A DNA stretch of 64,000 bases from Candidatus Aenigmatarchaeota archaeon (GCA_016783545.1 JADHWJ010000002.1:1617-65616), one strand, 5' to 3'. Numbered from the stretch's first letter, positions 294-52,018 are shown. Translations and numbers: made by a program. The notes: a model not told the origin generated them from the letters alone.

Positions 294-622
294 ATATATT
301 TAAAGATTGGAAGATAATAACATAATAGAGATCTTTGGTCTCTGTTCATATTCACACGATTATTACGTTTGCTTTTACAAACACCAGAGAAGATTTTTTT
401 CTTAGTATTATCTACCCACTTGCTACCTTAGAACGTGTCTCAGGACAGTCTTAGATAGAAAGGGGGTGATCATATCATGGCGCCCACAGACTATGCCTAC
501 AAGCGACGATGTCTGACTGGGCACTTCATTTCTTCTGTTGGAGAATAAAATTGTTCTGGTGGAATCAGACTGGTTGTCCACCATAAGGTGCAGAGTCCAT
601 ACCTAATTGAAGGAATGGGCAA

Positions 623-1084
623 GTGAAGATGACAAACTGTTGGAGTTCTATCATGCGACAGCCTCTCCATATTGTGCTGGCTCTGGGTGTCTTTGCCGCG
701 GTTTGCGTTTATGCGCTTCTGGCAAGAGATGCCCGCGCGGACGTCGTAACAGCTAAGGACGTGGTGGCGATCACGAAGGCCGAGAAGGCAACAGTTGACA
801 CGGCGATTGAGTTGAAGATGACCAAGGCGCTCGATGAAGACATCGGGGCCAGCAGCACCCGGATGGCCGCAACGGAGAACGAGAAGAAGAGCAGCGACAG
901 TGCGAATGACGACAGCGTATTGGTAGTGGCGAACATCACCGGCGATGCCCGGGCGGCCCCTACAGCCAAGAAGCTGGCGAGCTCGAGCGACAGCACGGCG
1001 GCAAGAACGATCGAAGCCATCGGGATCGGCGGTGTGAACGACAAGACCCTGACAGCCGGCGCCGTGGCCTACGCCCTATTGTGA
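623..1084 (+). CDS. Orphan signal-anchored Ala/Thr/Asp-rich protein
   Basis: Hydrophobic N-terminal segment HIVLALGVFAAVCVYALLA; GC-rich codons; start could be 623, 629 or 653. Confidence 0.7.
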   Translation: MKMTNCWSSIMRQPLHIVLALGVFAAVCVYALLARDARADVVTAKDVVAITKAEKATVDTAIELKMTKALDEDIGASSTRMAATENEKKSSDSANDDSVLVVANITGDARAAPTAKKLASSSDSTAARTIEAIGIGGVNDKTLTAGAVAYALL

Positions 1085-1162
1085 GGAAGATGATCCTCTT
1101 TTGGGTATGGTCATGGTAAGAACTACCCCCCTCGGTCAGGACAGCTTCTGGCCGGGGGTAGT

Positions 1163-1211
1163 GGGGATAGGTGATGTTGACCTTGTGGTTCAAATCCACA
1201 TATCCCCTCCA
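1163..1211 (+). ncRNA. tRNA-like mini-structure (acceptor stem + T-arm + CCA, no D-arm)
   Basis: GGGGATA/TATCCCC 7-bp stem; TGTGG-TTCAAAT-CCACA T-arm; ends T-CCA. Confidence 0.5.
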
Positions 1212-1299
1212 ATTCGCCTCCGCCTCCCGGACAGGCGCAGCCCCAGATCAAGCGACACCCCAATATTCATGATGAGGTGGTGCTCGCTTGGTCTTTATA

Positions 1300-1316
1300 T
1301 TGTCATTTAAGCGGGA
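1300..1316 (+). repeat. Conserved site copy TTGTCATTTAAGCGGGA
   Basis: Matches the consensus TTGTCATYTTAANGGGA seen in 13 copies. Confidence 0.8.
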
Positions 1317-1377
1317 TATATATCATTGTCGAAAGGTAAAATTTACATTTAAAAGTATTATTGGATAAACATATCCT

Positions 1378-1911: not shown

Positions 1912-2163
1912 ATGTCTAAAGTAGAAAACCTAGGTGTAATTGCGGAGCCTGGCTCTGCGAATAAAGACAAGAAGTCTGGATGGAGAACATTCAAACCAAA
2001 GATTAATGAAAAATGCACAAACTGTGGTTTTTGTGTTTCGTTTTGCCCAGAAGCTGGAATAACTATTGAAGGTGACAGGGCAAAGATAAATTATGATTAT
2101 TGCAAAGGCTGTATGATATGTGTTGATGTGTGCCCTTTGAAAGCAATAGAGGAGGAGAAATGA
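1912..2163 (+). CDS. porD: Pyruvate/2-oxoacid:ferredoxin oxidoreductase delta subunit (2x[4Fe-4S])
   Basis: WRTFKP, CxxCxxCxxxCP twice, DYCKGC. Confidence 0.95.
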   Translation: MSKVENLGVIAEPGSANKDKKSGWRTFKPKINEKCTNCGFCVSFCPEAGITIEGDRAKINYDYCKGCMICVDVCPLKAIEEEK

Positions 2164-4859
2164 AAGTGCTATCAGGTTCCCAGGCAGTTGCAGAGGCAGT
2201 AAAACTTTGTAAACCAGAGGTTGTTCCAGTTTATCCTATCACTCCAGCCACACCAATGGCAGAATACCTCTCACAGATGGTTGCTGATGGTGATTTGAAT
2301 GCTGAATTCATAACAGTGGAATCAGAACATTCTGCAATGTCAGCATGCATAGGCGCATCCTCAACAGGTGTAAGAACATTTACAGCAACAGCTTCACAAG
2401 GTCTTTGTGTAACACCGGATACTGATATAATCATGGAAAATCCAGGAATAAAAAACATAAAAGACTTTGTGGATAAAAATCTTGAGAAGTATAAAATAAA
2501 CCAAGGAAAATGGGAAATTGGAACTGGAACTGGCAAAATTTTGACATGGAATGGTCAGGAATTTGAATATGATAAAATAACCCATGTTCAGAGAATAAAA
2601 CCTCCAAAAAAGTTAATTAAAATTATAACGAGATCTGGTTCTGAAGTTACAGTTACACCAGATCATAAAATATTAATAGATAATGTAAATAAACCAGAAT
2701 GGATTGAAGCAAAAATGTTAAATGGCAATGAATATCTATATGCGCCAAGAAAAATAAAATTAAAAAATATAAAAAGACCAAAAATAATAGAATTTCTACC
2801 AGAAAATATGACTGTTATACTTGATTCCGAAATAAAAACAAGATTAGTTAGAAAAATAAAAAATATTTATGGGAGTTTAAATAAAGGTTCTAAAAAACTT
2901 GAAATACCAAAACATCATATTCTTTCTAACTATTCTATCTCTTTGGAAACAATAAAAAAATTATGTGATTCTGATATTATCAAGTGGAAAGAAATATATG
3001 AAAAAACAAATATATTCTCTCTTCACGGAGGGACAATTAAAACAAATTTTAAGGAACTAAATAAAGATTTCATGTACTTATTAGGTCTGATGTTTTCTGA
3101 TGGATGTTTCAAAGGAGATATTAAAAGTAAAAATAGGTTTGTATTCACTAATAAAAATAAAAAGTTATTGAAAATATTCTCAAATGGTTATAAAAAGTTA
3201 TTTCCGAACAAACCTGTTGGAAAGGTTTTACTTAAAAGAGGTGTAACACAGTTAATGGGTTCAAATTTTATATTTTCAATACTTGGCAAGAAAATAACTT
3301 TAAAGAAAATTTTCAGTTACGATGAAGAGCTAATAAAATCATTTCTGAAAGGTTATTTTGATGGTGATGGGAGTTGCAGAATTCAGAGCAAAAAAAGAAT
3401 AACAATATTCTTACATTGTAAAGATGATAGCAAAGTATCAGATCTGAAAAAGTTATTGTTAAGACTTGGTATTCTTAGTCATGTATATAAAAGAGATAAT
3501 ATTATTAGAGGTCTGTATATTTGTGGTTTGGGTGATACAATAAAATTTATAAGCACCATAGGAAGTAATCATCCTCAGAAACGAGAAAGATTCGTTATAG
3601 CTAAAAAATTCTTATTAAAATCTAAGCCAAGACCGCAATGGTCAGGTAAAACAGCTTTAATATGCAGAGATTTATTGATTGCTACAATAAAGAAAAGCTC
3701 ATATTCAATGAATGAAATTGATCCTGAGAATTATATTAATAAAACAAAATTTAGAAATACTCGAATAGGAAAGGAAAAATTAAGGGAAATTTTGAAAAGA
3801 ATGGAAGAAAGAAATTTTGAAAAAGATGAAACTTTCAGCTTACTGAAAAAGATGTCCTCAGATTCATTCTTTCTGGATCCCATAAAAAAAATAAAAAAAA
3901 TAAAGAGCCCACATAAATATGTTTACGATTTAACTGTTGAGAAGAATAGATCATTTGTTCCAAATGCTGCTTTTGTTGTTAGCAATTGCTTAATGCATGA
4001 AATGCTTTTTGTTGCATCAGGAACAAGATTGCCTATTGTTATGGCAATTGCAAACAGGGCACTGTCTGCTCCTTTGAATATTTGGAACGATCAGCAGGAT
4101 AGTTTTGCTCAAAGGGATTCTGGTTGGATACAGCTCTATGTTGAGAATGCACAAGAAGCTTTTGATACAATTATAATGGCATATAGGATAGCAGAGGAGA
4201 TGAAAACACCTGCAATGGTCTGCATGGATGGTTATGTTATCTCTCATACATATGAGAATGTTGAACTTCTTAGCCAGTCTGATGTTGATAGATTCCTTCC
4301 CAAATTCAAGCCAGAGATATTCCTTAACCCAAGAAAACCAATGACAATTGGCCCGGTAGGAACCCCTGAATATTATATGGAATTTAAAAAGCAGCAGCAG
4401 GATGCTCTGAAACAATCACTTGAGACAATTAAAAGAGTCAGCAATGAGTTTGCTTCAATGGTAAAAAGAAAGTATGGCAACGGCCTGATTGAAAAGATTG
4501 GTATGGAAGGAAAGAAGCATGCATTGATAACAATAGGTTCTCTGACAGGCACAGCAAGAGCTTTACAAGAGCAAGATGATTTTGGTATAATAAGAATTAA
4601 GGCATTGAGGCCTTTCCCTCTAAAACAGATAATAGAGGCCTGCAAAGACCTTGAGTCAGTGGGTGTTGTAGAAAAAGATATTTCTTTGGGGGCAAACGGT
4701 GTCCTATATGATGAAATACGTTCTGCTTTATATGGAAAATCCAAAGCAAAAGTCTCTGGTTATATAGCGGGATTGGGCGGAAAGGATATCACTCTCAGTG
4801 ATCTGAAAGGCATTTTGAAGAGTGTTAGGGCTGGAAAAGATAGTGTGGAGTGGATTTAA
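2160..4859 (+). CDS. porA: Pyruvate/2-oxoacid:ferredoxin oxidoreductase alpha subunit, intein-interrupted
   Basis: VYPITP, VESEHSAMSA, TATASQGL|intein|CLMHE, ANRALSAPLNIWNDQ. Confidence 0.93.
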   Translation: MKVLSGSQAVAEAVKLCKPEVVPVYPITPATPMAEYLSQMVADGDLNAEFITVESEHSAMSACIGASSTGVRTFTATASQGLCVTPDTDIIMENPGIKNIKDFVDKNLEKYKINQGKWEIGTGTGKILTWNGQEFEYDKITHVQRIKPPKKLIKIITRSGSEVTVTPDHKILIDNVNKPEWIEAKMLNGNEYLYAPRKIKLKNIKRPKIIEFLPENMTVILDSEIKTRLVRKIKNIYGSLNKGSKKLEIPKHHILSNYSISLETIKKLCDSDIIKWKEIYEKTNIFSLHGGTIKTNFKELNKDFMYLLGLMFSDGCFKGDIKSKNRFVFTNKNKKLLKIFSNGYKKLFPNKPVGKVLLKRGVTQLMGSNFIFSILGKKITLKKIFSYDEELIKSFLKGYFDGDGSCRIQSKKRITIFLHCKDDSKVSDLKKLLLRLGILSHVYKRDNIIRGLYICGLGDTIKFISTIGSNHPQKRERFVIAKKFLLKSKPRPQWSGKTALICRDLLIATIKKSSYSMNEIDPENYINKTKFRNTRIGKEKLREILKRMEERNFEKDETFSLLKKMSSDSFFLDPIKKIKKIKSPHKYVYDLTVEKNRSFVPNAAFVVSNCLMHEMLFVASGTRLPIVMAIANRALSAPLNIWNDQQDSFAQRDSGWIQLYVENAQEAFDTIIMAYRIAEEMKTPAMVCMDGYVISHTYENVELLSQSDVDRFLPKFKPEIFLNPRKPMTIGPVGTPEYYMEFKKQQQDALKQSLETIKRVSNEFASMVKRKYGNGLIEKIGMEGKKHALITIGSLTGTARALQEQDDFGIIRIKALRPFPLKQIIEACKDLESVGVVEKDISLGANGVLYDEIRSALYGKSKAKVSGYIAGLGGKDITLSDLKGILKSVRAGKDSVEWI
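2406..3986 (+). mobile_element. Intein with LAGLIDADG homing endonuclease (527 aa) in PorA
   Basis: Starts CVTPDT; block B VTVTPDHKIL; endonuclease motifs YLLGLMFSDG and FLKGYFDGDG; ends VYDLTV..FVVSN with +1 Cys. Confidence 0.93.
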
Positions 4860-8007: not shown

Positions 8008-8514
8008 TTAAACTTCTGGATGTTCACAAGGATCTATTTTACCTTCAGGTTTGAAATACTGGCTGAACCTTTTTCTCATTTCTTCCCTTGTAAGTCCTGC
8101 TTCTTCTGCCACTTCATATGCATGGTCTAGCATTGCATCTGTGGGCATTAATGCACCTAAATCCAGATATCTGTTTGCTTCTTTAAGCTCACCTTCGCAA
8201 GCAGCCAATGCAGCTCTAGCTTTTGTAGGTTCTACATATTCTTCTGGTAGACCCATACCTAAAAGCTCTGGCATGTCTTCAGCTTTGAAAAAACAATACT
8301 GATTCATATCTTGACAACTACCTGCTCTTCTGTTTGCTGTTTCAACTACCTCTGCTACAAACTCTGCTTCTATAGCTGCTCTATCTGCTTCCCAGTCTTC
8401 GTCAGTATATGCAGAACAATCTCTTGCCATCTTAATTAATTCAGCAGCGCCTTTGTCTGTTACAATAATTTCTGTCATATTATACTCTCTTGTGTCACCA
8501 TTTAACAGTGACAA
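8008..8514 (-). CDS. Orphan acidic protein
   Basis: 168-aa ORF with a TATA box (8535-8541) directly after a conserved site. Confidence 0.65.
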   Translation of the reverse strand: MSLLNGDTREYNMTEIIVTDKGAAELIKMARDCSAYTDEDWEADRAAIEAEFVAEVVETANRRAGSCQDMNQYCFFKAEDMPELLGMGLPEEYVEPTKARAALAACEGELKEANRYLDLGALMPTDAMLDHAYEVAEEAGLTREEMRKRFSQYFKPEGKIDPCEHPEV

Positions 8515-8549
8515 TTAATACTTGGAATATGAGTATATAAAGTTTTTTC

Positions 8550-8566
8550 TCCCGTTAAGATGACAA
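8550..8566 (-). repeat. Conserved site copy TTGTCATCTTAACGGGA
   Basis: Preceded on the minus strand by a 9-bp hairpin (8570-8604) and followed by GAAAAAACTTTATA. Confidence 0.9.
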
Positions 8567-8614
8567 AATAACAGGACAGAAAGGGTCTCCCCAATTGTCC
8601 TGTTCAATCTTACC

Positions 8615-13186: not shown

Positions 13187-13597
13187 TCATTCTCTAAGAC
13201 TTAATCCATATCTACCAAGAATTTCTTTTACAGCTCTAAGTGATGTGGGACCAAAATGTTCATAATATAACAAATCCTTTTCAGATCTTGTTAAAAGTTG
13301 AGTGATAAGCCGAATTCCTTTAGCTTCAAAAACATTTTGACACCTTGCAGGAAACGGTAGTTCATCTACATTGCGATATGTAATATCTGTACCTGGTTCA
13401 GGGGTTTCTTTTCCCATATCATCCAGGGTAGTACATAGTTCATCTGTTACCCTATCAATCTCTTTTAGATAATTTTTTAAAAATTCGCTGTTCTCTGGAT
13501 CCTCATATTGATCCATTAAGTCCCTGGCAAATGTAGAATATCTTTTGGCTGTTGCCTTAAGGTATTCATGTCTTGCTGTCCGAATTTCCTGTTTCAT
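13187..13597 (-). CDS. Protein with C-terminal bacterial RNA polymerase alpha-CTD-like domain
   Basis: VDELPFPARCQNVFEAKGIRLITQLLTRSEKDLLYYEHFGPTSLRAVKEILGRYGLSL follows the RNA_pol_A_CTD pattern. Confidence 0.8.
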   Translation of the reverse strand: MKQEIRTARHEYLKATAKRYSTFARDLMDQYEDPENSEFLKNYLKEIDRVTDELCTTLDDMGKETPEPGTDITYRNVDELPFPARCQNVFEAKGIRLITQLLTRSEKDLLYYEHFGPTSLRAVKEILGRYGLSLRE

Positions 13598-13632: not shown

Positions 13633-13649
13633 TCCCTTTAAAATGACAA
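13633..13649 (-). repeat. Conserved site copy TTGTCATTTTAAAGGGA
   Basis: Preceded by hairpin 13656-13688 and CTTTATA; followed by a TATA box. Confidence 0.9.
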
Positions 13650-13702
13650 TATAAAGAAGCCCTGTAAGATTGCTCAAACAGGGACTTCGTTGAGCCAACC
13701 TT

Positions 13703-14185: not shown

Positions 14186-14485
14186 CTATTCCTTTCTTTT
14201 TCCGCTGCCATATTTGTTATACCAGCAAAGAATTGTCCATCTGGAAACCTTTATGCCTTCATATCTTTCCAAGTGCTTTTTTGCTTCTGCAAGAGAAAAG
14301 CCCTTTTCATATAAAGAAACAGCTTTCATGATATCTTTTCTACTGAACCTCATTCTCCAATAACCATCATGCAATGTGAATTTCCTTCCGCATTTCTTGC
14401 AAAGCCTAAGTCTTTTCTTAGTCCTATCATTATACCTGTATCCCCTGAATACAATACTTTCTGAATCGCAATATGGGCACTTCAT
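14186..14485 (-). pseudogene. Zn-ribbon + HTH protein resembling an IS6/IS1-type transposase N-terminus; no DDE domain
   Basis: MKCPYCDS..CKKCGRKF, HTH ending VSRWTILCWYNKY; stop before any catalytic domain. Confidence 0.6.
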
Positions 14486-14566
14486 GCTTATCACTCTGTA
14501 CTAAAACTTTTGTTTTCAGAGCTAATAAATGTACTATTAGAGGGATATCTTCCGGCCTTATAAATA

Positions 14567-14583
14567 TCCCTTTTAATTGACAC
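14567..14583 (-). repeat. Conserved site copy GTGTCAATTAAAAGGGA
   Basis: Preceded by hairpin 14594-14615 and CTTTATA; followed by TATTTATAAG. Confidence 0.8.
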
Positions 14584-14589: not shown

Positions 14590-15740
14590 GGCAAGGTGGT
14601 CGGCGTAGGCCACCTATGGTCTGGAAATAGGATACTCTCCAAGGATCTCCGGTTCGAAGAGCCAGTTTCAGCCCCGGTACAATGAAGAGGACCGTTTGAG
14701 CGGGATCCTGATCCCAAAATACCGTCATCATTGTGTCGGGGGTTCCAGTGTCCCGTTTCGGCGCGCTCCAATAAAACATAGAGGAGCGATTGGCCGAGGA
14801 CTGTGCCGGGAGGACCCCCTGTGTTGGTGCTTACCTACCGGACCACCATTGCCCACCGAGAGCCTGTAGCCTTATCAGGGCTCGACTCCCGATAATTCCT
14901 ATTATTGGAGGCTTTTGGATTGTCTGTTTTGGGGCTACCTGAGACCACCTCATGTGGGTGGAAAGGTCTCGCCCCGTTTATGGTTCCCTCCCATTAGAAG
15001 GAGACCCTGAAGGATCTCCTGGGAGTCAAGTGCCTCCCCTTCGGTACAACTAACGCTCAGTGGGATAACTCCCCCCACCGTTCGTTACGAATCACATGAG
15101 GTGCGACCCAAGTCAGCCGAATCCGAACCTCATTTGCGTACTCCCCCTTTCGGGTAAGGTGCCCACCATGTTCTGGACGGGTTGGGTGGACACAGGTTGT
15201 CGGTTTCCGGTGCAACCGCCTTGCTAGGACTCCAGTAATCCCAGCTTTCGTGGCAGTTGGTAAGTGGTTGCCTCCGCGAGAGAGCAACCAACAATGCCTA
15301 GTGACTGGCCGAATTGGTGTTTGGCTTTATCTTTCAGTCTTCGCATAACACCCTTCTGCCACCTCGGACGCGAGGTTCAAAGTTGGATGTTAAAGCTAGG
15401 ACTTAGTCCTTGCCCTCGCAATTTGTTCTCCTTCCTTGCGTTGGCTAGTTTTGGCTCCCTTTAGAGCTCATCAGGAAAGCCAGCTTGGCCGAAGGAGATA
15501 TGCCAGTCTTTCAAGGTACGTCCTGATTTATAGAGATACGGTTTCTTGGCCAATAGCTACATAGGGTACTTCAAACGACAAAGCATGATGCAAATCATGC
15601 GTTTGACCTCCTTTCTAGCGGGGAGTAGGGCCATGAAAAAAATTTGGAGGGAGGGAGGCCGCCCGTGTGGGTCAGGCACGGACGACCTCCTGGGAGGGAG
15701 TTGGGTACGTAACCTAAGACAGAGAAAGATGTTAGTTTTC
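14590..15740 (-). ncRNA. Candidate large (~1.15 kb) structured non-coding RNA (island 4)
   Basis: GC-rich, no credible long ORF, dense hairpins; 14-bp helix 15654-15690 and helix 14999-15020 have G-U pairs only on the minus strand; CCC-GAAA-GGG and C-UUCG-G loops on minus. Confidence 0.65.
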
Positions 15741-15820
15741 TAGAAGTAGTACTAAAGAAAAAAATCATCTTCTCTGGGAGTTTGCAAAGCAAACCTTGTG
15801 AACTAATGAATATGAAATGA
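15740..15820 (-). promoter_or_regulatory. Conserved 5' leader shared with island 1, downstream of TATA box TTTAAATA (15851-15858)
   Basis: TTCATATTCA..GTTTGCTTTGCAAACTCCCAGAGAAGATGATTTTTTTCTTTAGTA versus 345-414. Confidence 0.7.
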
Positions 15821-22324: not shown

Positions 22325-22408
22325 TATTGACACGACCCTCCCAACATAGAGAACAGTGTCAGTGCCAGAGATATGGGTTTGCCACAAGCTTACTCATACT
22401 CTGTTATA

Positions 22409-22425
22409 TTGTCATCTTAAAGGGA
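22409..22425 (+). repeat. Conserved site copy TTGTCATCTTAAAGGGA
   Basis: Directly upstream of GAAAAGGCTTATAAA promoter and ACTATAG-AACA-CTATAGT operator-like palindrome. Confidence 0.9.
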
Positions 22426-22462
22426 GAAAAGGCTTATAAACTATAGAACACTATAGTATACT

Positions 22463-22687
22463 ATGGAAACAACAACAATACAAATAACTGAGAATTTGCA
22501 AAATGAACTCAAATCCAGAAAAATATCAGAAAATGAAAGCTATGAAGAGGTTATATGGGATATGATAGAGGATACTATGGAACTTTCTGAACAAACCAAA
22601 AAAGATATAAGGGAAGCTGAAGAGGATATCAAAGCCGGTAGAGTTCATACACTTGAAGAGATTGAAAAGAGAATCAAAGATGATTGA
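22463..22687 (+). CDS. Antitoxin (DUF7557/VapB3-like), partner of RelE
   Basis: TTIQIT..ESYEEVIWDM..EEDIKAGRVHTLEEI; overlaps the toxin gene. Confidence 0.8.
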   Translation: METTTIQITENLQNELKSRKISENESYEEVIWDMIEDTMELSEQTKKDIREAEEDIKAGRVHTLEEIEKRIKDD

Positions 22688-22943
22688 AATGTATAATGTT
22701 ATTTTCTCTAAAAAAGCAGGAAAAGAGTTTGATAAATTGGAAAAAATAATTCAGAAAAGATTAGTTTCTGTAATCAAGAGGATAAGGATAAGACCTGAGG
22801 CTTTTGTTAGAAAGCTTGTCGGAGGACCTTATTATAGACTGAGAGTTGGTGAATACAGAGTAATTTTGGATATCAGAAAAGGAGAATTGATTATTCTGGT
22901 TATTTCTATTGGTCATAGAAGAAACATCTATAAGAGCCTTTAA
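22680..22943 (+). CDS. RelE/ParE family toxin
   Basis: YNVIFSKKAGKEF..YRLRVGEYRVI..IGHRRNIY. Confidence 0.92.
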   Translation: MIEMYNVIFSKKAGKEFDKLEKIIQKRLVSVIKRIRIRPEAFVRKLVGGPYYRLRVGEYRVILDIRKGELIILVISIGHRRNIYKSL

Positions 22944-22954
22944 TTTACTTAAAT

Positions 22955-22971
22955 TTGTCATTTTAGAGGGA
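22955..22971 (+). repeat. Conserved site copy TTGTCATTTTAGAGGGA
   Basis: 11 bp after the relE stop; followed by GAAAAAGCTTTATAAA and GTAAACA-AATA-TGTTTAC palindrome. Confidence 0.9.
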
Positions 22972-23017
22972 GAAAAAGCTTTATAAATATGTAAACAAAT
23001 ATGTTTACAGTGATTAT

Positions 23018-23254
23018 ATGGTTCAAGTTCAATTAAGAGTGCCAGATAATATGGTTAAGGATATTGATGGATGGGTAGAAGAAGGAAGATTCAAAAACAG
23101 AAGCGATGCTGTTAAAACAATTATATCTCTATATGAGGATAAGATGAAAACAATGGAATTCCTAAAAATGCTTGTAAATAGGAGCAAAGAAGCTGAAAAT
23201 AACCCTGAAAAATTGATACCCCTGGATGATCTGGATGTTAAAAGTTCTAATTAA
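23018..23254 (+). CDS. Ribbon-helix-helix (CopG/Arc/MetJ) antitoxin
   Basis: VQVQLRVP..IDGWVEEGRFKNRSDAVK. Confidence 0.88.
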   Translation: MVQVQLRVPDNMVKDIDGWVEEGRFKNRSDAVKTIISLYEDKMKTMEFLKMLVNRSKEAENNPEKLIPLDDLDVKSSN

Positions 23255-23308
23255 TAATAAAGCGAATTTTTACAGATATGCCTTGATCGGCATTATAGGA
23301 GGCATTGG

Positions 23309-23569
23309 ATGTTTAAGATACTTCTACACACTCTAAGTTTAAAATCTCTTGAAAAGCTGGATAAAGAAGTTCAGTTTCAAATAAGGAAGAAATTAAGAGA
23401 ACTTGAGGAATTTCCTGAACAAAGAGGTAAGCATTTAAGATATACACAATTCTGGAGTCTGAGAATAGGTGATTATAGAGCTATATATGAAATTAAAAAT
23501 AAAGAAGTTATTGTTCTTTTCATAGGTCATAGAGATAGAGTATATGATGATTTCTCAAAGATATTTTAG
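23309..23569 (+). CDS. RelE/ParE family toxin
   Basis: WSLRIGDYRAIY..FIGHRDRVY. Confidence 0.92.
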   Translation: MFKILLHTLSLKSLEKLDKEVQFQIRKKLRELEEFPEQRGKHLRYTQFWSLRIGDYRAIYEIKNKEVIVLFIGHRDRVYDDFSKIF

Positions 23570-23714
23570 ACAGACGATTTACTTAAATTTGTTTAAGCCT
23601 TTTAGAGGCAAATGAAACCTCCATTTAAACCAATAAGATCAAATGGAGAACCTACTGCCTTCTTTGGTTAAATCTTTTCGCAAAAGCCTTAAGTTCACCC
23701 AAAAACCCTTAAAA

Positions 23715-23731
23715 TTGTAATCTTAACGGGA
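23715..23731 (+). repeat. Conserved site copy TTGTAATCTTAACGGGA
   Basis: Followed by GAAAAAGCTTTATATA; same sequence at 52002. Confidence 0.9.
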
Positions 23732-24160
23732 GAAAAAGCTTTATATACCACTAATACAATTAATCTTATCTGTCACTATGTAATAGTGATAATTAAAGGG
23801 AGAACATGGGAGTAACTCATGTTCTATGAAACTTAAATAGAGTTGCAATGCAACCGAAAGTTTCATAAATAGTAATTACAAATAAAAGAGATCAGGTGTC
23901 AAATTTGTCCCGCAAGGGTGAATTTGGCAAACTCTCCCATCTTGGAACTGCCAGTTGGCAGTTCCTCTTGGACCATTGGTTGTAAAAGATCAATGGTTTT
24001 ATCCTTACAAACACAATTGAACTGGCTTACTATCTTCGGATATACCAGTTCAAACCGAGTGAATACACGGATTAAAGGGCCAAATTTTTCTAGTTCTGAG
24101 AATCTTCAATGATTTTCTTCAAGGTCTTTTGTCTGTCTACTCGGTAATTACATAATTGTT

Positions 24161-24500
24161 AGGGACAGGAAGCGGGGTCGGTAAAACCATCCCCGATTAC
24201 TATACATCGCAACGGTAGGAGTCGCGAGTCCGCCCGCAGTACCACGCCTAATGGCTGGTAATGGCCGGCATAATTCCTACCCGGGGTCGGAACCACCCCG
24301 CTTCCTCCCTTCGGCTTCTAAGGTATACAGCCCCCTTTAGAAGAATACACCGAAGGATTCAAACGGTTCAGGGGCAATGTGGTGCACCATAATATTACAT
24401 AGGAGTATATAGGTGCACAAGGACGCCGAAGGGAGTCCCGAAAATTTGTCGTACCTCACTATGACATATGGTGAGGCACTCGCGTCCTCTAAGAGGACAC
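24161..24500 (+). ncRNA. Candidate structured RNA / long leader
   Basis: AGGAAGCGGGGT pairs with ACCCCGCTTCCT and encloses GGTAGGA/TCCTACC; four more hairpins follow. Confidence 0.55.
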
Positions 24501-24546
24501 TGATGTTTCGCTGATGGAGTCTTTTTCACTGAAAGGAGTGAAAGAG

Positions 24547-25086: not shown

Positions 25087-25096
25087 TTTTCGCTGC

Positions 25097-25151
25097 AACG
25101 GGAGTCCTATAGGCCTCGGGACTTCCTTAACAAAATAAAGGGAGGCCTACT
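25097..25151 (+). repeat. 55-bp intergenic direct repeat, copy 1
   Basis: AACGGGAGTCCTATAGGCCTCGGGACTTCCTTAACAAAATAAAGGGAGGCCTACT identical at 26162-26216. Confidence 0.95.
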
Positions 25152-25190
25152 GATGGATGTTGACGTTCGACGGTAAGAAAGGGACACAAC

Positions 25191-27239: not shown

Positions 27240-27826
27240 GGAATCTGAGTTTCGCCGCCATCATAGCGGCTCTCCTTCTTGTAGGTTGTGAGAGGGAGAA
27301 GAGTTCCAGCAGCCGAGGGCGCACAACCAGGCGCGCCGCCGATGGGGAGAAGTTGACCCTTCGGGACCTGCAGGCGGATCCTAACGGGTTCGCTATCGTG
27401 GACCCAGACCGCCGGCGAATGAAGCTCCCCATGAGCTTCAGAATCGTCAGAGCCATGGACGGCGGGTCCGGTGAGGAAGTTATGCTGGTCGCTTATCTTG
27501 GGGGTGAGGAGAGCCCCAGCGATGAGCAGGACGGGGTTGAGGAAGATGTACCGCCGAACTATGTTCTCGTCCGGGTTCGGCGGGCGTGTGGTGTAGATCT
27601 CCTTGGCGGGGAGACGAACGCCAACTGCCGCCTCTTTGTGAAGAAGTTCGAGCGCAAAGGGACGGTGGAGATGGGCGATCACGGTGACGAATTGTATGTA
27701 ATCACGGTCGCTCGCGGGGACATCTACTACAACTACGACGTCATGTCCCTGAGCGGCGATAACATGACGGATACGGTTGAGCGAGACCGGCCGCCGGATC
27801 CGGTGCGGCACCACAGCTACCCGTAA
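27236..27826 (+). CDS. Orphan putative lipoprotein
   Basis: MRNLSFAAIIAALLLVG-C lipobox; ATGA overlap with the previous gene. Confidence 0.75.
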   Translation: MRNLSFAAIIAALLLVGCEREKSSSSRGRTTRRAADGEKLTLRDLQADPNGFAIVDPDRRRMKLPMSFRIVRAMDGGSGEEVMLVAYLGGEESPSDEQDGVEEDVPPNYVLVRVRRACGVDLLGGETNANCRLFVKKFERKGTVEMGDHGDELYVITVARGDIYYNYDVMSLSGDNMTDTVERDRPPDPVRHHSYP

Positions 27827-27989
27827 GGGAAATGAATACCAGGTCCCTCCCAAGGGGTGGAGGGGCCTGGTGGCCTCTTGAGAGAAAGGAGATGAAAATC
27901 ATGTTGTGACGCCTTTCACAAAAACAACACAATGTTGAGGGTACGGCAACAGTACCAGAAAGGGAGTGGCGCCCCACAGTTGCTTTATG

Positions 27990-28025
27990 ATGTCTTTTTA
28001 ACGGTATATACCATTAACTTGACTG
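27990..28025. repeat. Two degenerate conserved sites head-to-head (27990-28006 +, 28009-28025 -) around palindrome GGTATATACC
   Basis: ATGTCTTTTTAACGGTA and CAGTCAAGTTAATGGTA, each preceded by a hairpin. Confidence 0.7.
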
Positions 28026-28060
28026 AGTAAAGGGGAAGTTGTTCCCCTTGTAATTACTCC

Positions 28061-38488: not shown

Positions 38489-38491
38489 ATC

Positions 38492-39475: not shown

Positions 39476-39517
39476 ACCATGGGGATATGTGTTGGATGAC
39501 ACTAATTCCCCATTACT

Positions 39518-39569
39518 ATGTCTTATTAACGGGATATATATAAAAATAGTTATCCCTTTTAAATGACAA
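39518..39569. repeat. Two conserved sites head-to-head (39518-39534 +, 39553-39569 -)
   Basis: ATGTCTTATTAACGGGA and TTGTCATTTAAAAGGGA separated by 18 AT-rich bp. Confidence 0.85.
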
Positions 39570-41101
39570 TGTAAGTAAGTCCAGGAGGATAGGGCGGGCT
39601 ACCACTGGACTTGTTTGCTACCTTTGAATCTTCCTCCGGGCGCGTCTGGCAATCGCCTGGAGGATGATCAACCTCAGGTTTGCCCTTCGTAGCGGGTCGA
39701 ACATACCAGTCCAACCAAAGGCTTCGATGAAGTGTTCAATGGCTTGGATTTCCCTTCGTAGGTCAAAGCCCACGGCGTTCGAGACCTGTGCCTCAACCTT
39801 TTCTTCAGGGAATTTGACCCCGTTAACGGACTTGACTAGTTCTTCCGCTAAGCTTGCCTGTAGGTATTCGGTAGTTTTGGCAATCAGCCTTGCGCGCCAG
39901 TTCTCTTCCATCAGTCCTAGGGTCTGTCGGAGGTACTCATCGTACCCACACCGTGCCAGGGTGGTTCCCAGCTCGAGTAGGGCGTACTGCTTTTGCTGTC
40001 CCCTCAGTTCAGCCACAGCATCGCTGAGGGTCTGATGATTAAAATTTTCACTAGAATTCATACTTCGGAGGATGATCCGGCCCTGGACCTTACCGACAGT
40101 GGTTTGGAGGTGTTTCTGGAGACTCTCCACCGGTTTAGTGTCCTCCCCAACGAGTTCGTACATGAGTTGGACTATTCCCTGGTCCAGGACAACCAAGGAG
40201 TCGGTGTAGTCACTAGATCCATGGGTATAGGCCAGGCCAGAGAATTGGGTCAGTAGCCCATGGGCCATCTTCGCTATCCTGCCCAGTTGGATTATGACAT
40301 GGACCATCTCGATGAAGCTTTTCCGTTGGACTCTCCGGTCCCCGATTTTGAAGAGCTTCACCGTGTTCTCGTAGAGCTGTCTATTATCATGTGAGTAGAG
40401 CAATGTGAGAACCTCTACTTTGATCGCAGCGACCCTAGATATTGCCAGATCATTCTGGGGTTGCAGGTCTTTGAACATATCGATGATCGGAACGCAGTCA
40501 TTACCCATCTCGCTTATCCCAAGGACTAACCATTTCAGAGCTTCGGCCTTGGAGACTGGGTCATTGATAGCAATTTGCCTTCCAGAAACAATCAGATTAG
40601 GCCAGGCAAACTGCCAGACATCCGAACAGGCCTTGCAGACACCTGCTAGGATATTGTCAGCGCTCTTGACATCTGGCCTATCTTCAGGCAAAGATGCCAG
40701 GTCAATTCTGATCATCTCGACAAGTCGTCGGAAAAGACTCTGCATGTCGAAGGTTGACTCATACTTATCCACGATCCACTGTGCCTGACCTCTGGAGATG
40801 TTTCCATTAGACATCAGATGGGTAATCTCAGCCACCTGTTTCATCGTCGCCGGCTTGCTTTCCAGCAAGTTCTTAGGTTTCATCTTTTTCTCCTTTGACA
40901 AATACCTATTAACCAAGCGCACCCCGCCGCACGGTTGGAATAGAGGTATTTGCCCAAAGACACCTCCCAGATGAAAAAGAGGCGCCTGGCCAAAAGAAAC
41001 GACGATCCGGACCACCCGGATTTTAGTTGTTTTCTTTCCAAAAGACAGCAGAAACCAGATGAGAAAGAGTCCTTTATTTAGAAGGTTCCGCAGGTTCTCT
41101 A
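39553..41101 (-). mobile_element. GC-rich island 9 (one orphan helical gene)
   Basis: Gene, hairpin 39577-39612, site; TAGAGAAC near the 5' edge. Confidence 0.5.
39618..40883 (-). CDS. Orphan alpha-helical protein (421 aa)
   Basis: AAAGGAG RBS before MKPKNLLESKPATMKQ; long open frame. Confidence 0.75.
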   Translation of the reverse strand: MKPKNLLESKPATMKQVAEITHLMSNGNISRGQAQWIVDKYESTFDMQSLFRRLVEMIRIDLASLPEDRPDVKSADNILAGVCKACSDVWQFAWPNLIVSGRQIAINDPVSKAEALKWLVLGISEMGNDCVPIIDMFKDLQPQNDLAISRVAAIKVEVLTLLYSHDNRQLYENTVKLFKIGDRRVQRKSFIEMVHVIIQLGRIAKMAHGLLTQFSGLAYTHGSSDYTDSLVVLDQGIVQLMYELVGEDTKPVESLQKHLQTTVGKVQGRIILRSMNSSENFNHQTLSDAVAELRGQQKQYALLELGTTLARCGYDEYLRQTLGLMEENWRARLIAKTTEYLQASLAEELVKSVNGVKFPEEKVEAQVSNAVGFDLRREIQAIEHFIEAFGWTGMFDPLRRANLRLIILQAIARRARRKIQR

Positions 41102-41330
41102 GGAAATAAATAATGTGTGAAAATCAAAATCACCCTTTAATGTGATTAGGATTGTTTATATCTTTCAATACATGGTTTTTAAGTGCGTTTATACTGTTAA
41201 ATTGACAAAACTTATTATCATTAATAACAAAATATAAAAGGTTATTATAATTGATTATATCCGAAGGACTTTGGGGTTGAGACTTTTGAGGCAAATAATT
41301 TTTAATGGAGGTAACCAATAAAAGGTTCAC

Positions 41331-49416: not shown

Positions 49417-50049
49417 TTACTGACTTGATATGTCTAAAGTACCAGCGCTATCTTTTACTATTTTAAGTCCTTCTGCAACAACATCAAAGTTCTTTGCAAG
49501 TTCTCTGAACATATCTGCTTCCCTTCTTTCATCAAAAAAGTCAAGCTGAGAAACCTTTGCATATGAATTTTCTCCTGCTCTTTGAAGAATTTTTCTTATA
49601 CCCTCACTTGAAGGTTCTTCTATTGGAATATCCATACCAACTTCTGCTATCATATCTCTTGCAAAATCCAATGTTTCCATTGCATGACCATAAAAAATAC
49701 TTAAACACCCAGGATAAGCACCTGTCCAGAAAAGAGTGAAATCACCTAGATATCTATATTGTTCCCTTTCAGCACCAGCACTAACCATAATAGGAAGAGT
49801 TTCAATCTCTGTGAGTGTTTTTGCAATTACAAGTCTTGCAACTCTTTTATTTTTACCTCTAAATGTATTATCCATATGAGAATATCTTGTGAGAAGCCTT
49901 GCAGTATATTCTTTACTTGGTTCAGAAATAGCGTCACCATATACTATATCAGCTGCAGCTCTGAAACGCCTCCCAAGTTCGCTTGCGTATGGTACAGGGA
50001 CTTCTTTGAACCCTAGTACACGTGTAGGATCAATCATTCCCATATACAA
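49417..50049 (-). CDS. Hypothetical helical protein
   Basis: 210-aa ORF; YRYLGDFTLFWTGAYP segment recalls a bacterial uncharacterised family. Confidence 0.65.
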   Translation of the reverse strand: MYMGMIDPTRVLGFKEVPVPYASELGRRFRAAADIVYGDAISEPSKEYTARLLTRYSHMDNTFRGKNKRVARLVIAKTLTEIETLPIMVSAGAEREQYRYLGDFTLFWTGAYPGCLSIFYGHAMETLDFARDMIAEVGMDIPIEEPSSEGIRKILQRAGENSYAKVSQLDFFDERREADMFRELAKNFDVVAEGLKIVKDSAGTLDISSQ

Positions 50050-50230
50050 TATTAGAAGTAAAATTTTTATATCTAATATGGGAATTCACAATCTAACTTG
50101 GTATTGTGGAAACTGTTATATTTTCCCACCACTTGGAATTTTTAAGTATTTAGAACCTCAGAATAACGTTTATAAGCCAAGAATTGAACTATAATCATAG
50201 GTATGCATTACATACCACGAGCAGGAAAGT

Positions 50231-51409
50231 ATGCTTCAGCTTAAATGGAATGGAAGTGAAATATGGGCTGAAGACCCTGAAACTATTGGAAAAATCAGAC
50301 AGAATTTTTTCGGCGAACATAAAAACGCTAGGGTCTTCTTAAATATAGAAGAAGCTCTATATCTCTTACAGTTCCAGAACGCTGAATGTGAAAGAGATGG
50401 TAAAAAAATAGGTTTCAATGATCTTGCAAGTGCCTATGCAAAAGCAGAACCAAGGCTTTTTATAAGATATAATGCTTTTAGGGACTGGAGAGACAGAGGC
50501 CTTGTTGCAAAAAGATTTGATAAAATTCAGGGTCTTGGAGCAGAAACTGCAAAGAAATATCCTTCGCAAAAAATGCAGATAAAGAAAATAAATGCAAAAA
50601 TAGTGTGGTATCCTGGGTCGCTTTTCTCTATTCTTGAAGATGAAAAACTTGGAAAAGAACTTTTTAATACATATTGGTTTGGGCAGTTTGGTATTTACAA
50701 ACAGGATAGAGGAACATTACTCAAACTGAATTTCTTTGAAACAATTTTCCTGGCAAAACATTTTGGAGTAAAGGTAATAAGCGCTAATACAGGAACAGAA
50801 GCAAACTACAAGAACATAATGGAGGATGTGATAAAGAAAAGGGAATATACAAAGCAGTTATATGAAGTGTATGAGGAATGGAGACTTCATGATTTTGTTG
50901 TAAAAACAGGCTTTAAATTCGGTTCGCATTTCAGGATATATTTTCCAGGCGCAAGTCCCGCCAAGAAAGGCAAATGGATACATTCAAAGCATGTTCTGCA
51001 CATTTTCCCAAAAGAAGAAAGGCTTTTAATTTCTGAATGGTCCAGAGCAGTCAGAGTAGCACATGGTGTAAAAAAGACGTTTATACTGGCAATTCCAAAG
51101 ATGGATGAAAGTGATTATATAAATTATCCTTTGGATTACCTTGCATATAGAAGAAAAAAGCATAAAGGAAACCTGATAAGAGAAACACCAAAAGACAAAC
51201 CAAGATATCTGTTAGAGGCTGTTTCAGAGGATGATCATATAGGTGGAATAGAGCTTGCAACATTACTGAAAAGGTCTTCTGACCAGAAACTGGAGCTATT
51301 GCTTTCTATTTCAGATAGGGAATCTGCTATCACTTACTATGTTCTGAAAAAGGTTAACATACCAGACTCTAAGTATGAATACTATGAAATAGAATGGATG
51401 AAACCCTAA
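50231..51409 (+). CDS. endA: tRNA-intron endonuclease, three-unit (epsilon2-like) architecture
   Basis: VVKTGFKFGSHFRIY, HSKH, SRAVRVAHGVKK catalytic unit between partial N- and C-terminal units; 392 aa. Confidence 0.9.
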   Translation: MLQLKWNGSEIWAEDPETIGKIRQNFFGEHKNARVFLNIEEALYLLQFQNAECERDGKKIGFNDLASAYAKAEPRLFIRYNAFRDWRDRGLVAKRFDKIQGLGAETAKKYPSQKMQIKKINAKIVWYPGSLFSILEDEKLGKELFNTYWFGQFGIYKQDRGTLLKLNFFETIFLAKHFGVKVISANTGTEANYKNIMEDVIKKREYTKQLYEVYEEWRLHDFVVKTGFKFGSHFRIYFPGASPAKKGKWIHSKHVLHIFPKEERLLISEWSRAVRVAHGVKKTFILAIPKMDESDYINYPLDYLAYRRKKHKGNLIRETPKDKPRYLLEAVSEDDHIGGIELATLLKRSSDQKLELLLSISDRESAITYYVLKKVNIPDSKYEYYEIEWMKP

Positions 51410-51661
51410 CTACTTATATACCTTTTTCCTATGTAAAAATCTTAAAAGAAAAAGTTTATAGTCTCTGACTGAATAAATTAATCTATATGGTTTTACATAT
51501 ACTGTTCTTTCACCTCTGAGACCATATCTTAGAGGTTTGCCAATGTTAGGATTTTCGATTATTTTTTCTATCTGTTTCTTAATTCTTCTTAGCATTTCAG
51601 AATCTTTGAGAGATTTTAGATTCTTCTCAAATTCTTTACTACTTCTTATTATCATTTTCAC
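51410..51661 (-). CDS. RelE/ParE family toxin
   Basis: NPNIGKPLRYGLRGER..PYRLIY..FLHRKKVY. Confidence 0.9.
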   Translation of the reverse strand: MKMIIRSSKEFEKNLKSLKDSEMLRRIKKQIEKIIENPNIGKPLRYGLRGERTVYVKPYRLIYSVRDYKLFLLRFLHRKKVYK

Positions 51662-51950
51662 AATCAGAAATTAGTTTACCGAGTTCTTTGAGAAAATCTT
51701 CTGCACTACTTTCAGTATATTCCCCTTTTTCTACCTCTTCCCATGCATTTTTTGCTTCTTTTGCCAATTCTAGTTCTTCCTTTGTTATAGGATTTTCAAC
51801 TTTTTTCAGCAGAAGCATATCATCATCAAAGCTTGAAATGGCAAAAACACTGCCTTCTGCTATATGCATATTCTTTCTCATATGTTTAGGGATTACTACC
51901 TGCCCTTTAGAACTCATTCTTGTAAGTTCTGGAATTGCTTTTTTATCCAT
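51639..51950 (-). CDS. AbrB/MazE/SpoVT family antitoxin
   Basis: TRMSSKGQVVIPKHMR; AGTAAGA-TTG-TCTTACT palindrome at the start. Confidence 0.9.
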   Translation of the reverse strand: MDKKAIPELTRMSSKGQVVIPKHMRKNMHIAEGSVFAISSFDDDMLLLKKVENPITKEELELAKEAKNAWEEVEKGEYTESSAEDFLKELGKLISDCENDNKK

Positions 51951-52001
51951 ATAGTAAGATTGTCTTACTTACTTATAAATGTTGCATGAAATTGCCTAAT
52001 T

Positions 52002-52018
52002 TTGTAATCTTAACGGGA
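52002..52018 (+). repeat. Conserved site copy TTGTAATCTTAACGGGA
   Basis: Same as 23715; followed by GAAAAAGCTTTATAA and GTCACT..AGTGAC palindrome. Confidence 0.9.

Follow-up and report, generated by a model that had tools for sequence, protein, structure and literature searches.

In the tiny genome of a Candidatus Aenigmatarchaeota archaeon, almost every block of horizontally acquired genes has its ends marked by a repeated 17-base motif. Its best explanation, to which we give a probability of roughly 0.55, is a domesticated DNA-binding domain of a transposase together with dispersed solo-end sites that act as transcription-unit boundaries; the parts of this explanation are well supported and the function is what we infer from them. 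On sequence grounds, there is good support for the site being a terminal inverted repeat of IS6/IS26 type that stands alone and has kept its inner, transposase-binding part. Homology likewise gives good support for regarding the zinc-ribbon and helix-turn-helix (ZF-HTH) protein encoded at 14186-14494 on the minus strand as a zinc-finger IS6 transposase reduced to its DNA-binding region, with no DDE catalytic domain.

The window, i.e., the whole analysed stretch of 64,000 nucleotides, contains 13 matches to TTGTCATYTTAANGGGA with up to three mismatches, versus 2.2 expected and 6 in the richest shuffle. With a position weight matrix (PWM) of 25 columns and a threshold of at least 16 bits, 46 sites were detected in the 886-kb genome versus 2 in a shuffled genome, and their consensus reads TATA-TTGTCAWTTWARMGGGA-TAWA; the recurrence noticed in the preliminary description of the window thus extends genome-wide. 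Eleven of the 13 copies named there score 20-37 bits (1300+, 8550-, 13633-, 14567-, 22409+, 22955+, 23715+, 27990+, 39518+, 39553- and 52002+), 28009- is degenerate (10.8 bits), yet its position and hairpin conform to the pattern, and 18976- was rejected with less than 9 bits. A genuine site at 41192- (17.5 bits) was absent from that list. The strong conservation of the sites over 25 columns, also between genera whose aCPSF1 shows only about 60% identity, argues for selection on them.

The literature on IS6 elements describes a GG tip and a cTGTt motif in the repeat, the inner part of which is bound by the transposase, and the IS26 enzyme no longer binds when the TGT at positions 6-8, or R49/W50 in its helix 3, is mutated. 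This TGT, within an inner motif of the cTGTt...caaa type, is invariant in 31/31 sites of the host genome at the same offset as in the IS6 repeats. TA stands in place of the GG tip in the host, with T in 25/31 and A in 27/31 sites at positions -4/-3; the sites in relatives read tGTATTGTCAACTTAAnGGGA and have tG or gC there. Judging from these sequences, the cleavable GG is lost from the sites, where the transposase would cut. The site aligns with GGTATTGTCAACTTAA, the perfect repeat at both ends of a cyanobacterial IS6 of about 830 bp, and with the repeat GATATTGTCAATTTAAAGGGATA of an archaeal zinc-finger IS. In a zinc-finger IS present in several copies in an archaeon, the transposase start comes after the end GATATTGTCAATTTAAAGGGATATA. 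Elements of the IS6 family with a motif-type end occur in archaea and in bacteria. An insertion sequence of this family has two inverted ends, about 0.7-0.9 kb and up to 1.7 kb apart, that enclose a DDE transposase gene, with 8-bp target duplications; for 37/46 of the sites there is no inverted partner above background within 150 nt, and the genome has no DDE_Tnp_IS240. Unlike an insertion sequence, the system consists of about 46 solo copies at gene boundaries and a single-copy gene conserved across genera.

In tblastn searches, the ZF-HTH protein matched the N-terminus of an IS whose end equals the motif (57% identity, E = 4e-17) and the IS6 transposase of the relative G017 (36% identity, E = 6e-14), a bona fide family member (PF13610, 78.6 bits; NF033587, E = 6e-34). 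The NCBIfam matches of the protein itself to IS6 and IS1 N-termini were sub-threshold (NF033587, E = 3e-5). It has the N-terminal HTH of IS6 transposases, which in some clades includes a zinc finger, and no DDE domain: the reading frame ends at 99-102 aa, the open frames of orthologs span 94-134 aa, and no DDE-coding sequence was found downstream of the gene. The paired cysteines CPxC...CxxC and the residues S-R-W are invariant in the orthologs, with R-W placed in the predicted recognition helix as in Tnp26. An AF2 model (pLDDT 81) consists of a zinc ribbon and three helices, and a fold search gave no significant match. The gene is single-copy in this genome and in relatives, and its orthologs are 49-66% identical, compared with 58-66% for aCPSF1 across an overlapping set of relatives.

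By analogy with InsA, which binds at both ends of IS1 and represses the left-end promoter, the ZF-HTH protein probably binds the sites. Like our protein, InsA is a stand-alone chain, about 90-100 aa long, that combines a zinc finger with an HTH and has its DNA-binding domain in common with the transposase. The anatomy of such a regulator is seen at the ZF-HTH gene, where 14567-14583 (minus strand, 29.1 bits), which closes the ORF-less island 4 behind the hairpin 14594-14615, is also an upstream operator-like site in the order site, TATA, about 72 nt, ATG. A degenerate inverted partner ATGTACTATTAGAGGGA at 14529-14545 (plus strand, 7.3 bits) is separated from it by a 21-nt spacer, so that the two bracket the TATA box of the gene, for which repression is predicted. 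The orthologous gene in G017 has the same inverted-pair arrangement, and every ortholog has sites within about 30-120 nt. The difference is that InsA is encoded in the active IS that it regulates, whereas in this archaeon no such IS is left and the sites lie scattered at boundaries of host genes.

In a set of 41 relatives, presence of the protein and presence of the motif coincide perfectly (Fisher p = 3.4e-9). Each of the 14 genomes encoding the protein contains two or more motif matches (mean 7.5), while the 27 genomes lacking it average 0.33, which equals the reversed-pattern control, and the co-occurrence repeats in a second family. The distribution of the protein is patchy even within genera, as one would sooner expect of an accessory system than of a core factor for termination. 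A patchy, single-copy, transposase-derived gene flanked by its own sites, which number in the dozens, are short and extragenic and mostly follow closely on genes, recalls the REP/RAYT systems. However, RAYTs, which are domesticated from IS200-like elements, keep the HUH/Y1 catalytic domain, whereas only a double-strand DNA-binding domain is predicted here; REPs are conserved hairpins acted on as single strands, whereas here the conserved core TTGTCAWTTWARMGGGA lies outside the hairpin and the hairpins are mutually unrelated. SETMAR with the Hsmar1/MADE1 ends, like other eukaryotic transposase-derived factors, offers a precedent for a DNA-binding domain of a DDE transposase that was kept by the host and still recognises dispersed repeat ends of an extinct element, as would be predicted from sequence for the ZF-HTH protein. 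Those sites spread in eukaryotes as two-ended miniature elements, in contrast to solo ends at the terminators and promoters of an archaeon.

Across the genome, the GC content is at least 0.44 upstream of 30/46 sites and the reverse asymmetry occurs at one only, so the association with GC shifts proposed for the window holds genome-wide. At these 30 sites, a GC-rich transcription unit of foreign appearance ends in a stem-loop and a short T-rich linker, behind which the site lies, and essentially every strong GC island terminates in a site. The mean folding energy of the 45 nt upstream of the GC-side sites is -13.9 kcal/mol versus -3.7 kcal/mol downstream of all 46. The hairpins reported earlier are present at all nine island ends in the window; they are unrelated in sequence (-10.9 to -24.6 kcal/mol) and end 3-10 nt before the site, and the linker is usually YCTTTATA. 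The stems end in CC(C) followed by TTTATA in the host or by T4-8 in relatives, where a clear T-run precedes the site, and they lie 13-117 nt past stop codons; in sequence, this is the layout of an intrinsic terminator, i.e., a GC-rich stem and then a T-run 3' of a stop. The orientation of the site is always that of the upstream unit, and head-to-head pairs, spaced by 2, 7 and 18 bp, sit between convergent units.

Island 1 is closed by the site at 1300-1316 (plus strand, 36.9 bits), which follows the hairpin 1245-1294 (-24.6 kcal/mol) by 5 nt and has the TATA of the por operon about 33 nt downstream. On the minus strand, 8550-8566 (31.2 bits; hairpin 8570-8604) closes island 2 and is directly followed by the BRE/TATA GAAAAAACTTTATA of a gene at 8008-8514 starting 35 nt past the site, and 13633-13649 (35.7 bits; hairpin 13656-13688) closes island 3, with the TATA and leaderless start of gene 13187-13597 35 nt downstream. 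The site at 22409-22425 (plus strand, 33.4 bits; hairpin 22366-22403) closes island 5 directly upstream of the BRE/TATA of a first toxin-antitoxin pair, whose gene start lies 37 nt past it. The three copies described previously as promoter-adjacent indeed have a BRE/TATA downstream, all on the plus strand: 22955-22971 (29.9 bits, no hairpin) is followed by GAAAAAGCTTTATAA of a second toxin-antitoxin pair, 23715-23731 (24.5 bits) by a BRE/TATA and a TGTCAC..GTGATA operator, and 52002-52018 (24.9 bits), located between divergent genes, by GAAAAAGCTTTATAA and the TGTCAC..GTGACA operator of gene 52088-52348. Since 23715-23731 is also the 5'-flanking site of island 6, which is closed by 27990-28006 (plus strand, 20.6 bits; hairpin 27959-27986), direct repeats flank this 4.26-kb block with a GC content of 0.56, and the stretch 22409-27990 has the order site, toxin-antitoxin, site, toxin-antitoxin, site, island, site. 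Head-to-head with 27990+ and 2 bp away, the degenerate 28009-28025 (minus strand; hairpin 28030-28049) closes island 7. Islands 8 and 9 end in another such pair, 18 bp apart, formed by 39518-39534 (plus strand, 23.1 bits; hairpin 39479-39513) and 39553-39569 (minus strand, 30.5 bits; hairpin 39577-39612). The weaker site 41192-41208 (minus strand) lies on the 5' side of island 9, which is thus flanked by direct copies; the interval from 39553- to 41192- measures 1622 nt and has a GC content of 0.49.

The GC-rich islands are real, lineage-specific insertions. Their ORFs have GC3 values of 0.5-0.75 against a background of 0.25-0.34, their units lie on both strands and carry their own TATA promoters and leaders, and no island in the window matched rRNA, tRNA or Rfam families. 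The comparison of orthologous loci for empty sites, envisaged in the preliminary description, was informative at gatB, where a 1.77-kb island and its site part two genes that are direct neighbours in four relatives; these relatives lack the site, which seems to have come with the island. Searches for island cargo in relatives found none. The part of the original proposal that stands is a dispersed, mobile-element-derived motif, probably recognised in trans and associated with lineage-specific insertions, whereas active capture is not supported.

One could imagine a capture platform in which the solo ends are recombination sites and foreign 'translocatable units' are added to the outer tip of a site already in the genome, with catalysis in trans by the DDE transposase of a same-ended IS6 on a co-resident or incoming element and with the ZF-HTH protein helping or regulating recombination. 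Besides the insertions themselves and the gatB site, this is favoured by the foreign DNA always abutting the outer tip of the repeat, like flanking DNA at an IS end, by five units flanked by direct site copies, by the array-like stretch 22409-27990, by the same-ended IS6 elements of archaea and bacteria and by the precedent of IS26, which acts by targeted conservative cointegration. We nevertheless consider it unlikely, if the most credible of the alternatives. The factor proposed to act in trans is a DNA-binding domain without DDE, the GG needed for cleavage is replaced by TA, and neither DDE_Tnp_IS240 in the genome, which is about 70% complete, nor a catalytic transposase matching the sites was found. 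Among relatives with full-length IS6, the end sequence differs from the motif in G017 and no site copies were found in G098, G129 and G175. Most islands have a site on one side only, none occurs twice in the genome or was found in another genome, and no viral association was found. The fallback offered in the preliminary description, a shared transcript-end or regulatory signal, fits the boundary anatomy better.

Slightly less probable still is an ordinary regulon, in which the ZF-HTH protein represses or activates the promoters just downstream and the hairpins are unrelated terminators of neighbours in a compact genome. The site abuts a BRE/TATA in many cases, nine genes start 35-38 nt past a site, the sites at the protein's own promoter are consistent with autoregulation, and InsA is a precedent for such a repressor. 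On the other hand, for a dozen sites or more the next feature is a convergent gene or a second site, leaving no room for a promoter, as the head-to-head pairs illustrate, and both the tight hairpin spacing and an orientation always set by the upstream unit would be unexpected.

We find it improbable that the sites are inert relics, i.e., that an IS6-type element or a miniature derivative inserted just after hairpin and T-run terminators, which in this host only foreign, bacterial-type genes would have, and left solo ends, the ZF-HTH protein being an InsA-like inhibitor that protects against same-ended IS6. Insertion of this kind would account for the link between sites and foreign genes without a cassette mechanism; class C group II introns of bacteria target terminators, the three head-to-head pairs resemble miniature elements of 36-52 bp, and InsA competes with the transposase at IS1 ends. 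However, solo ends cannot transpose, most sites are devoid of an inverted partner, we know of no mechanism that would leave only one end each time, and the conservation of the sites speaks for selection.

Single-strand substrates of the attC or HUH/Y1 (REP/IS200) type, or assembly chimeras, are largely refuted: a variable hairpin does adjoin a fixed core, orphan genes and interspersed toxin-antitoxin modules recall integron cassettes, and genes for three tyrosine recombinases and a single IS200-like Y1 transposase are present in the genome, but, in agreement with the preliminary description, there is neither GTTRRRY in an R'/R'' palindrome of conserved architecture nor hairpin sequence recognisable by a Y1 enzyme, the units are dispersed in both orientations with their own promoters instead of forming promoterless co-oriented cassettes next to IntI, attI and Pc, none of the recombinase genes adjoins a site, all being distant or on other contigs, the hairpins flanking the Y1 gene (contig C8) are of a different kind and no site lies close to it, and the junction of island 1, site and por recurs in two other public assemblies with 99.8-99.96% identity.

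Returning to the boundary reading, we hypothesize that a site, once bound, would delimit transcription units in an orientation-dependent manner, and that at 3' ends its position 3-10 nt past a GC-rich hairpin and T-rich linker would make it a roadblock. The Reb1/Nsi1/TTF-I roadblock terminators of RNA polymerase I combine, on the same principle, a T-rich release element with an oriented protein-binding site behind it, and Reb1 roadblocks upstream of promoters would be matched by a site that also shields the next promoter. The mechanism is proposed by analogy; the proteins share no homology, and the spacing from T-tract to site is shorter here. RNA polymerase would probably stall about 12-20 nt before the site, which places it within the hairpin and not on the T-tract, so a terminator-helper mechanism is not geometrically clean. 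The boundary model alone also leaves unexplained why almost only foreign GC-rich units carry the site and how a sequence of about 24 nt arose some 30 times behind unrelated hairpins. The distance of 35-38 nt to the nine gene starts is that of an IS left end with its transposase promoter. Where a gene follows and the site abuts its BRE/TATA, the bound site would insulate the next promoter and probably repress or tune it, including the protein's own promoter and those of several toxin-antitoxin pairs, while the roadblock would make termination efficient for GC-rich, horizontally acquired genes.

The sites of this archaeon have a defined anatomy, the sites and a zinc-ribbon and helix-turn-helix (ZF-HTH) protein are homologous to parts of IS6 elements, and the two co-occur across genomes. 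Our overall reading, to which we assign a probability of about 0.55, is that of a domesticated IS6-derived DNA-binding domain with boundary sites. With up to three mismatches, TTGTCATYTTAANGGGA is matched 13 times in the window, compared with 2.2 matches expected and a maximum of 6 among 100 shuffles of the window. A position weight matrix, an approach that the preliminary description had suggested, was derived here from 31 good copies and delimits a conserved span of 25 columns, TATA-TTGTCAWTTWARMGGGA-TAWA; in the whole genome (886 kb, 18 contigs, 36% GC, with the archaeal markers aCPSF1, archaeal PorA with an intein, and tRNA splicing endonuclease) 46 sites score 16 bits or more, compared with 2 in a shuffled genome. 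Eleven of the sites listed in that description are strong and 28009- is degenerate, while 18976- is not a site; 41192- is a real site beyond those listed. The hairpins reported before the site at island ends are present at all nine GC-rich islands of the window, with stems of unrelated sequence, energies of -10.9 to -24.6 kcal/mol and ends 3-10 nt before the site; a perfect-stem hairpin scan picked up too few known hairpins to give the proportion of terminator-like hairpins that have a site. The predicted tie to a GC shift is borne out as well, since 30 of the 46 sites have a GC content of at least 0.44 on the 5' side and the reverse asymmetry is seen at 1 of 46. Mean fold energy is -13.9 kcal/mol in the 45 nt before GC-side sites and -3.7 kcal/mol after all 46 sites, and practically all strong GC islands of the genome terminate in a site. 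Relatives from other genera keep the motif as TTGTCAACTTAANGGGA, in every case behind a hairpin and a distinct T-run, e.g., TTTTTGTA.

IS6 family ends carry a GG tip and the inner motifs cTGTt/caaa, and Tnp26 binds the inner part of the IS26 end, this binding being abolished by a G-to-T change in TGT (positions 6-8) or by changes of R49 or W50 in helix 3. As the TGT of the sites described here is invariant and lies exactly at the offset of positions 6-8 of IS6 ends, and the two tip positions are TA instead of GG, the motif is, judged by its sequence, a solo IS6-type end that kept the binding part and lost the cleavage tip. A pattern scan over 596 Gb of genomes gave matches mostly at chance level and two multicopy cases. 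In a 'Methanoperedens' bin, GATATTGTCAATTTAAAGGGATATA stands at four contig ends and a zinc-finger transposase-like ORF starts 33-45 nt later, and in a Gloeocapsa genome GGTATTGTCAACTTAA bounds both sides of three copies of an IS6 of ~830 bp. The cyanobacterial IS6 (loci L065, L094 and L095 of the Gloeocapsa MAG) and the archaeal zinc-finger IS (loci L069, L070, L123 and L131 of the 'Methanoperedens' bin) have the near-identical end G(G/A)TATTGTCAAYTTAA, a likeness indicative of an IS6 subgroup that spans both domains; every archaeal copy lies at a contig end, and the element is thus unassembled. The site itself is not an insertion sequence, as DDE, second end and GG tip are all missing, and a miniature-element origin was discarded because most sites have no inverted partner. 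A sigma-70-like or archaeal core-promoter motif was ruled out by head-to-head pairs and sites facing convergent genes, integron and HUH systems were rejected, and a viral origin was dismissed with 8 single matches in IMG/VR, consistent with chance.

The ORF at 14186-14494 (-), immediately downstream of site 14567-, encodes the ZF-HTH protein and is homologous to transposase N-termini, with 57% identity (E = 4e-17) to the N-terminus of the IS that has the motif itself as its end and 36% identity (E = 6e-14) to residues 18-109 of the bona fide IS6 transposase of the relative G017. NCBIfam gave sub-threshold matches to IS6, IS1 and IS1/IS1595 zinc domains. About 30 stand-alone homologs of 87-177 aa, most of them 94-133 aa, exist in public data, some annotated by JGI as 'transposase-like protein'; CPxC...CxxC, RMRF and S-R-W are invariant in these homologs. 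The AF2 model (pLDDT 81) predicts a three-stranded zinc ribbon with a three-helix bundle, for which a fold search returned weak, non-significant domain-level matches only. The TATA box of the gene in the window is enclosed by two sites in inverted orientation, one strong and one weak.

Of 40 relatives, 13 have a single-copy ortholog (49-66% identity, open frame of 98-134 aa), and the distribution within the family is patchy. All 14 genomes with the protein contain at least 2 motif matches (mean 7.5), and the 27 genomes without it have a mean of 0.33, equal to the reversed-pattern control (Fisher p = 3.4e-9, a value inflated by shared ancestry). In all genomes that carry it, the gene has sites within ~30-120 nt. 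The same association holds for a second family of the class: genomes encoding the protein contain 1-5 sites there, most of them next to the gene, and zero sites were found in G098, G129 and G175, three genomes whose only homologs are full-length IS6. The conservation of the ZF-HTH protein is comparable to that of aCPSF1 (58-66% identical), which argues for a host function and against a decaying IS fragment. We consider it quite probable that the site is an end of IS6 type and that the ZF-HTH protein family recognises it. We infer both the binding of the sites by the protein encoded in the window and the effect of this binding discussed below.

The GC-rich islands are unlikely to be assembly chimeras, since the junction of island 1, site and por recurs in two other public assemblies with 99.8-99.96% identity. 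The pyruvate:ferredoxin oxidoreductase alpha subunit at 2130-4859 (+) contains an intein of ~525 aa with detected N- and C-terminal splicing motifs. A comparison of orthologous loci, as the preliminary description had proposed, found loci without the insert at gatB: in four relatives an acetyltransferase-like gene adjoins gatB with a gap of 0-43 nt, and in the genome studied here the two are separated by 1.77 kb of GC-rich DNA that closes with hairpin, site and a new TATA, with gatB starting 36 nt past the site. None of the twelve upstream junctions inspected in relatives has a site at gatB, and the island cargo sought in relatives was absent. This comparison, together with the missing cargo, shows that the islands are lineage-specific insertions. 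At the aCPSF1 locus the upstream neighbour is syntenic in 11 relatives and the downstream side is not conserved; a search of JGI metagenomes for close relatives found one locus only, with 59% identity.

Island ORFs have a GC3 of 0.5-0.75 compared with 0.25-0.34 in neighbouring genes, and most of their proteins have no Pfam match. Several are bacterial-style, with features such as the prepilin N-methylation motif GFTLIELL, signal peptides of lipobox-like or Sec type and, at their genes, strong Shine-Dalgarno sites. A 7-kb island on contig C1, considered as rRNA, holds sugar-metabolism genes instead; its fucose-isomerase-like protein shares ~60% identity with proteins from Planctomycetota, Armatimonadota and Omnitrophota, so that no recent donor can be named. 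The island-9 protein of 421 aa (39618-40883, -) has no detectable homolog among 5.8 billion clustered sequences and displays a clear coding-type GC periodicity. In another island (C11:10409-10815, -), a response-regulator receiver domain is divided between two abutting ORFs of 61 and 73 aa, which suggests a frameshift or sequencing error. Structural RNA was rejected as the explanation of the islands, with no Rfam or ARAGORN match in the window. The 1.15-kb GC-rich island at 14590-15740 (-), directly upstream of the ZF-HTH gene, has dense predicted stems, no credible ORF and no Rfam family or tRNA match, and carries its own promoter and leader and a 3' hairpin and site. A tRNA-like minihelix at 1163-1211 (+), with acceptor stem, T-arm and CCA visible in the sequence, was called by neither ARAGORN nor Rfam. 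Each island has an archaeal TATA promoter followed by a long leader in which short motifs recur: AGAGAA, TTTCTTAG and (A)GTCTTTGG, the last repeated once or twice directly before a strong AAGGAGG Shine-Dalgarno, are seen at 345-414 (+), at 15740-15820 (-) and at most island 5' ends across the genome, with 4-10x enrichment in island 5' regions. They may constitute a common post-transcriptional control element.

The sites recur in two contexts under a single orientation rule. At 3' ends, 13-117 nt past the stop codon, the site comes after a hairpin and T-linker, with its former outer tip toward the oncoming gene, and convergent units have facing site pairs 2, 7 or 18 bp apart with no promoter room between. 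When the next gene is co-directional, BRE/TATA adjoins the site, and nine genes start 35-38 nt past it, a layout that copies the order of end, promoter and start in the motif-ended IS. Several site-adjoining promoters are those of toxin-antitoxin (TA) genes and form site-GAAAAAGCTTTATAA-operator. Three site-linked promoters (8515-8549, 23732-23800 and 52019-52087) have a near-identical BRE/TATA, GAAAAAGCTTTATA, and behind it palindromes of the form TGTCAC-N9-11-GTGACA, which are probably the antitoxin operators in paralogous modules of small genes. Another site-adjacent promoter precedes a 136-aa protein (13187-13597, -) whose C-terminal part matches PF03118, the C-terminal domain of the bacterial RNA polymerase alpha subunit (E = 6e-11, above cut-off), which is unusual in an archaeon.

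A polar boundary element would be one explanation covering all site contexts: the bound site would act as a roadblock aiding termination and would also shield or repress the next promoter, as InsA represses the promoter at the IS1 left end. A pure terminator model does not account for the precise placement of sites at promoters; a pure operator model breaks down where sites lie between convergent units. We put the odds of a boundary or terminator function slightly below even, and the roadblock geometry is a weakness, as the stall would probably fall inside the hairpin rather than on the T-tract.

The position behind foreign genes could have arisen if selection repeatedly placed the module behind GC-rich units without T-rich termination signals, or if terminators of hairpin and T-run, confined in this genome to foreign genes, were the target of an ancestral element. 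Alternatively, the sites travel with or capture incoming DNA by the translocatable-unit logic of IS26. The gene-capture system first proposed stands as far as inserted islands and dispersed sites are concerned; the lost GG tip and the missing DDE partner speak against it. The gatB insert seems to have been brought in with a site, the outer tip always lies against foreign DNA and five units, including TA-TA-island 6, lie between direct copies, but most islands have a site on one side only and no island was found twice. Moreover, the DDE_Tnp_IS240 domain is absent from the genome and present in only 2 of 41 relatives, and the full-length IS6 of G017 was rejected as catalytic partner as its end sequence differs from the motif. 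Three tyrosine recombinases are encoded in the genome, as is one IS200-like Y1 transposase; no site lies near any of them. The single Y1 (HUH) gene (C8:31400-31849) has its own flanking hairpins, unrelated to the motif; two recombinase genes are adjacent (C7:39767-41456), possibly as part of an integrated element, and the third (C11:900-1802) is probably XerA. We consider it unlikely that the solo ends and their proposed binding protein form a minimal gene-acquisition platform, in which the outer tip of a vestigial IS end of 24 bp would be the place where foreign, largely bacterial-type units integrate or are preferentially kept, the IS of the IS26 logic being reduced to a binding site. If true, such a platform would shape most of the accessory genome in these reduced DPANN archaea.

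We rate the system as a domesticated transposase DNA-binding domain with dispersed end-derived sites. In eukaryotes, the domestication of such domains together with dispersed repeat ends is well known, and REP/RAYT of bacteria is a catalytically active counterpart. By descent, its nearest relatives are IS6/IS26 ends, the transposase N-terminus and IS1 InsA, by system logic REP/RAYT and SETMAR with the Hsmar1 ends of primates, and by proposed mechanism roadblock terminators of the Reb1/TTF-I type. What is new here is an archaeal, IS6-derived system of solo ends tied to terminators and horizontally acquired genes; our literature search found no description of an archaeal, IS6-derived or terminator-coupled case. 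To our knowledge, the factors and signals that end transcription units in Archaea are still poorly defined, and if the boundary function holds, the system would be their first proposed terminator or insulator with sequence specificity and protein dependence. The same 3' tag marks about 30 foreign units, many of which code for exported or surface proteins, and this makes the accessory gene set easily enumerated and the hypothesis easily testable with one small protein and one 25-bp site. The system would also provide a handle on how a genome-reduced symbiont accommodates compositionally foreign, horizontally acquired genes.
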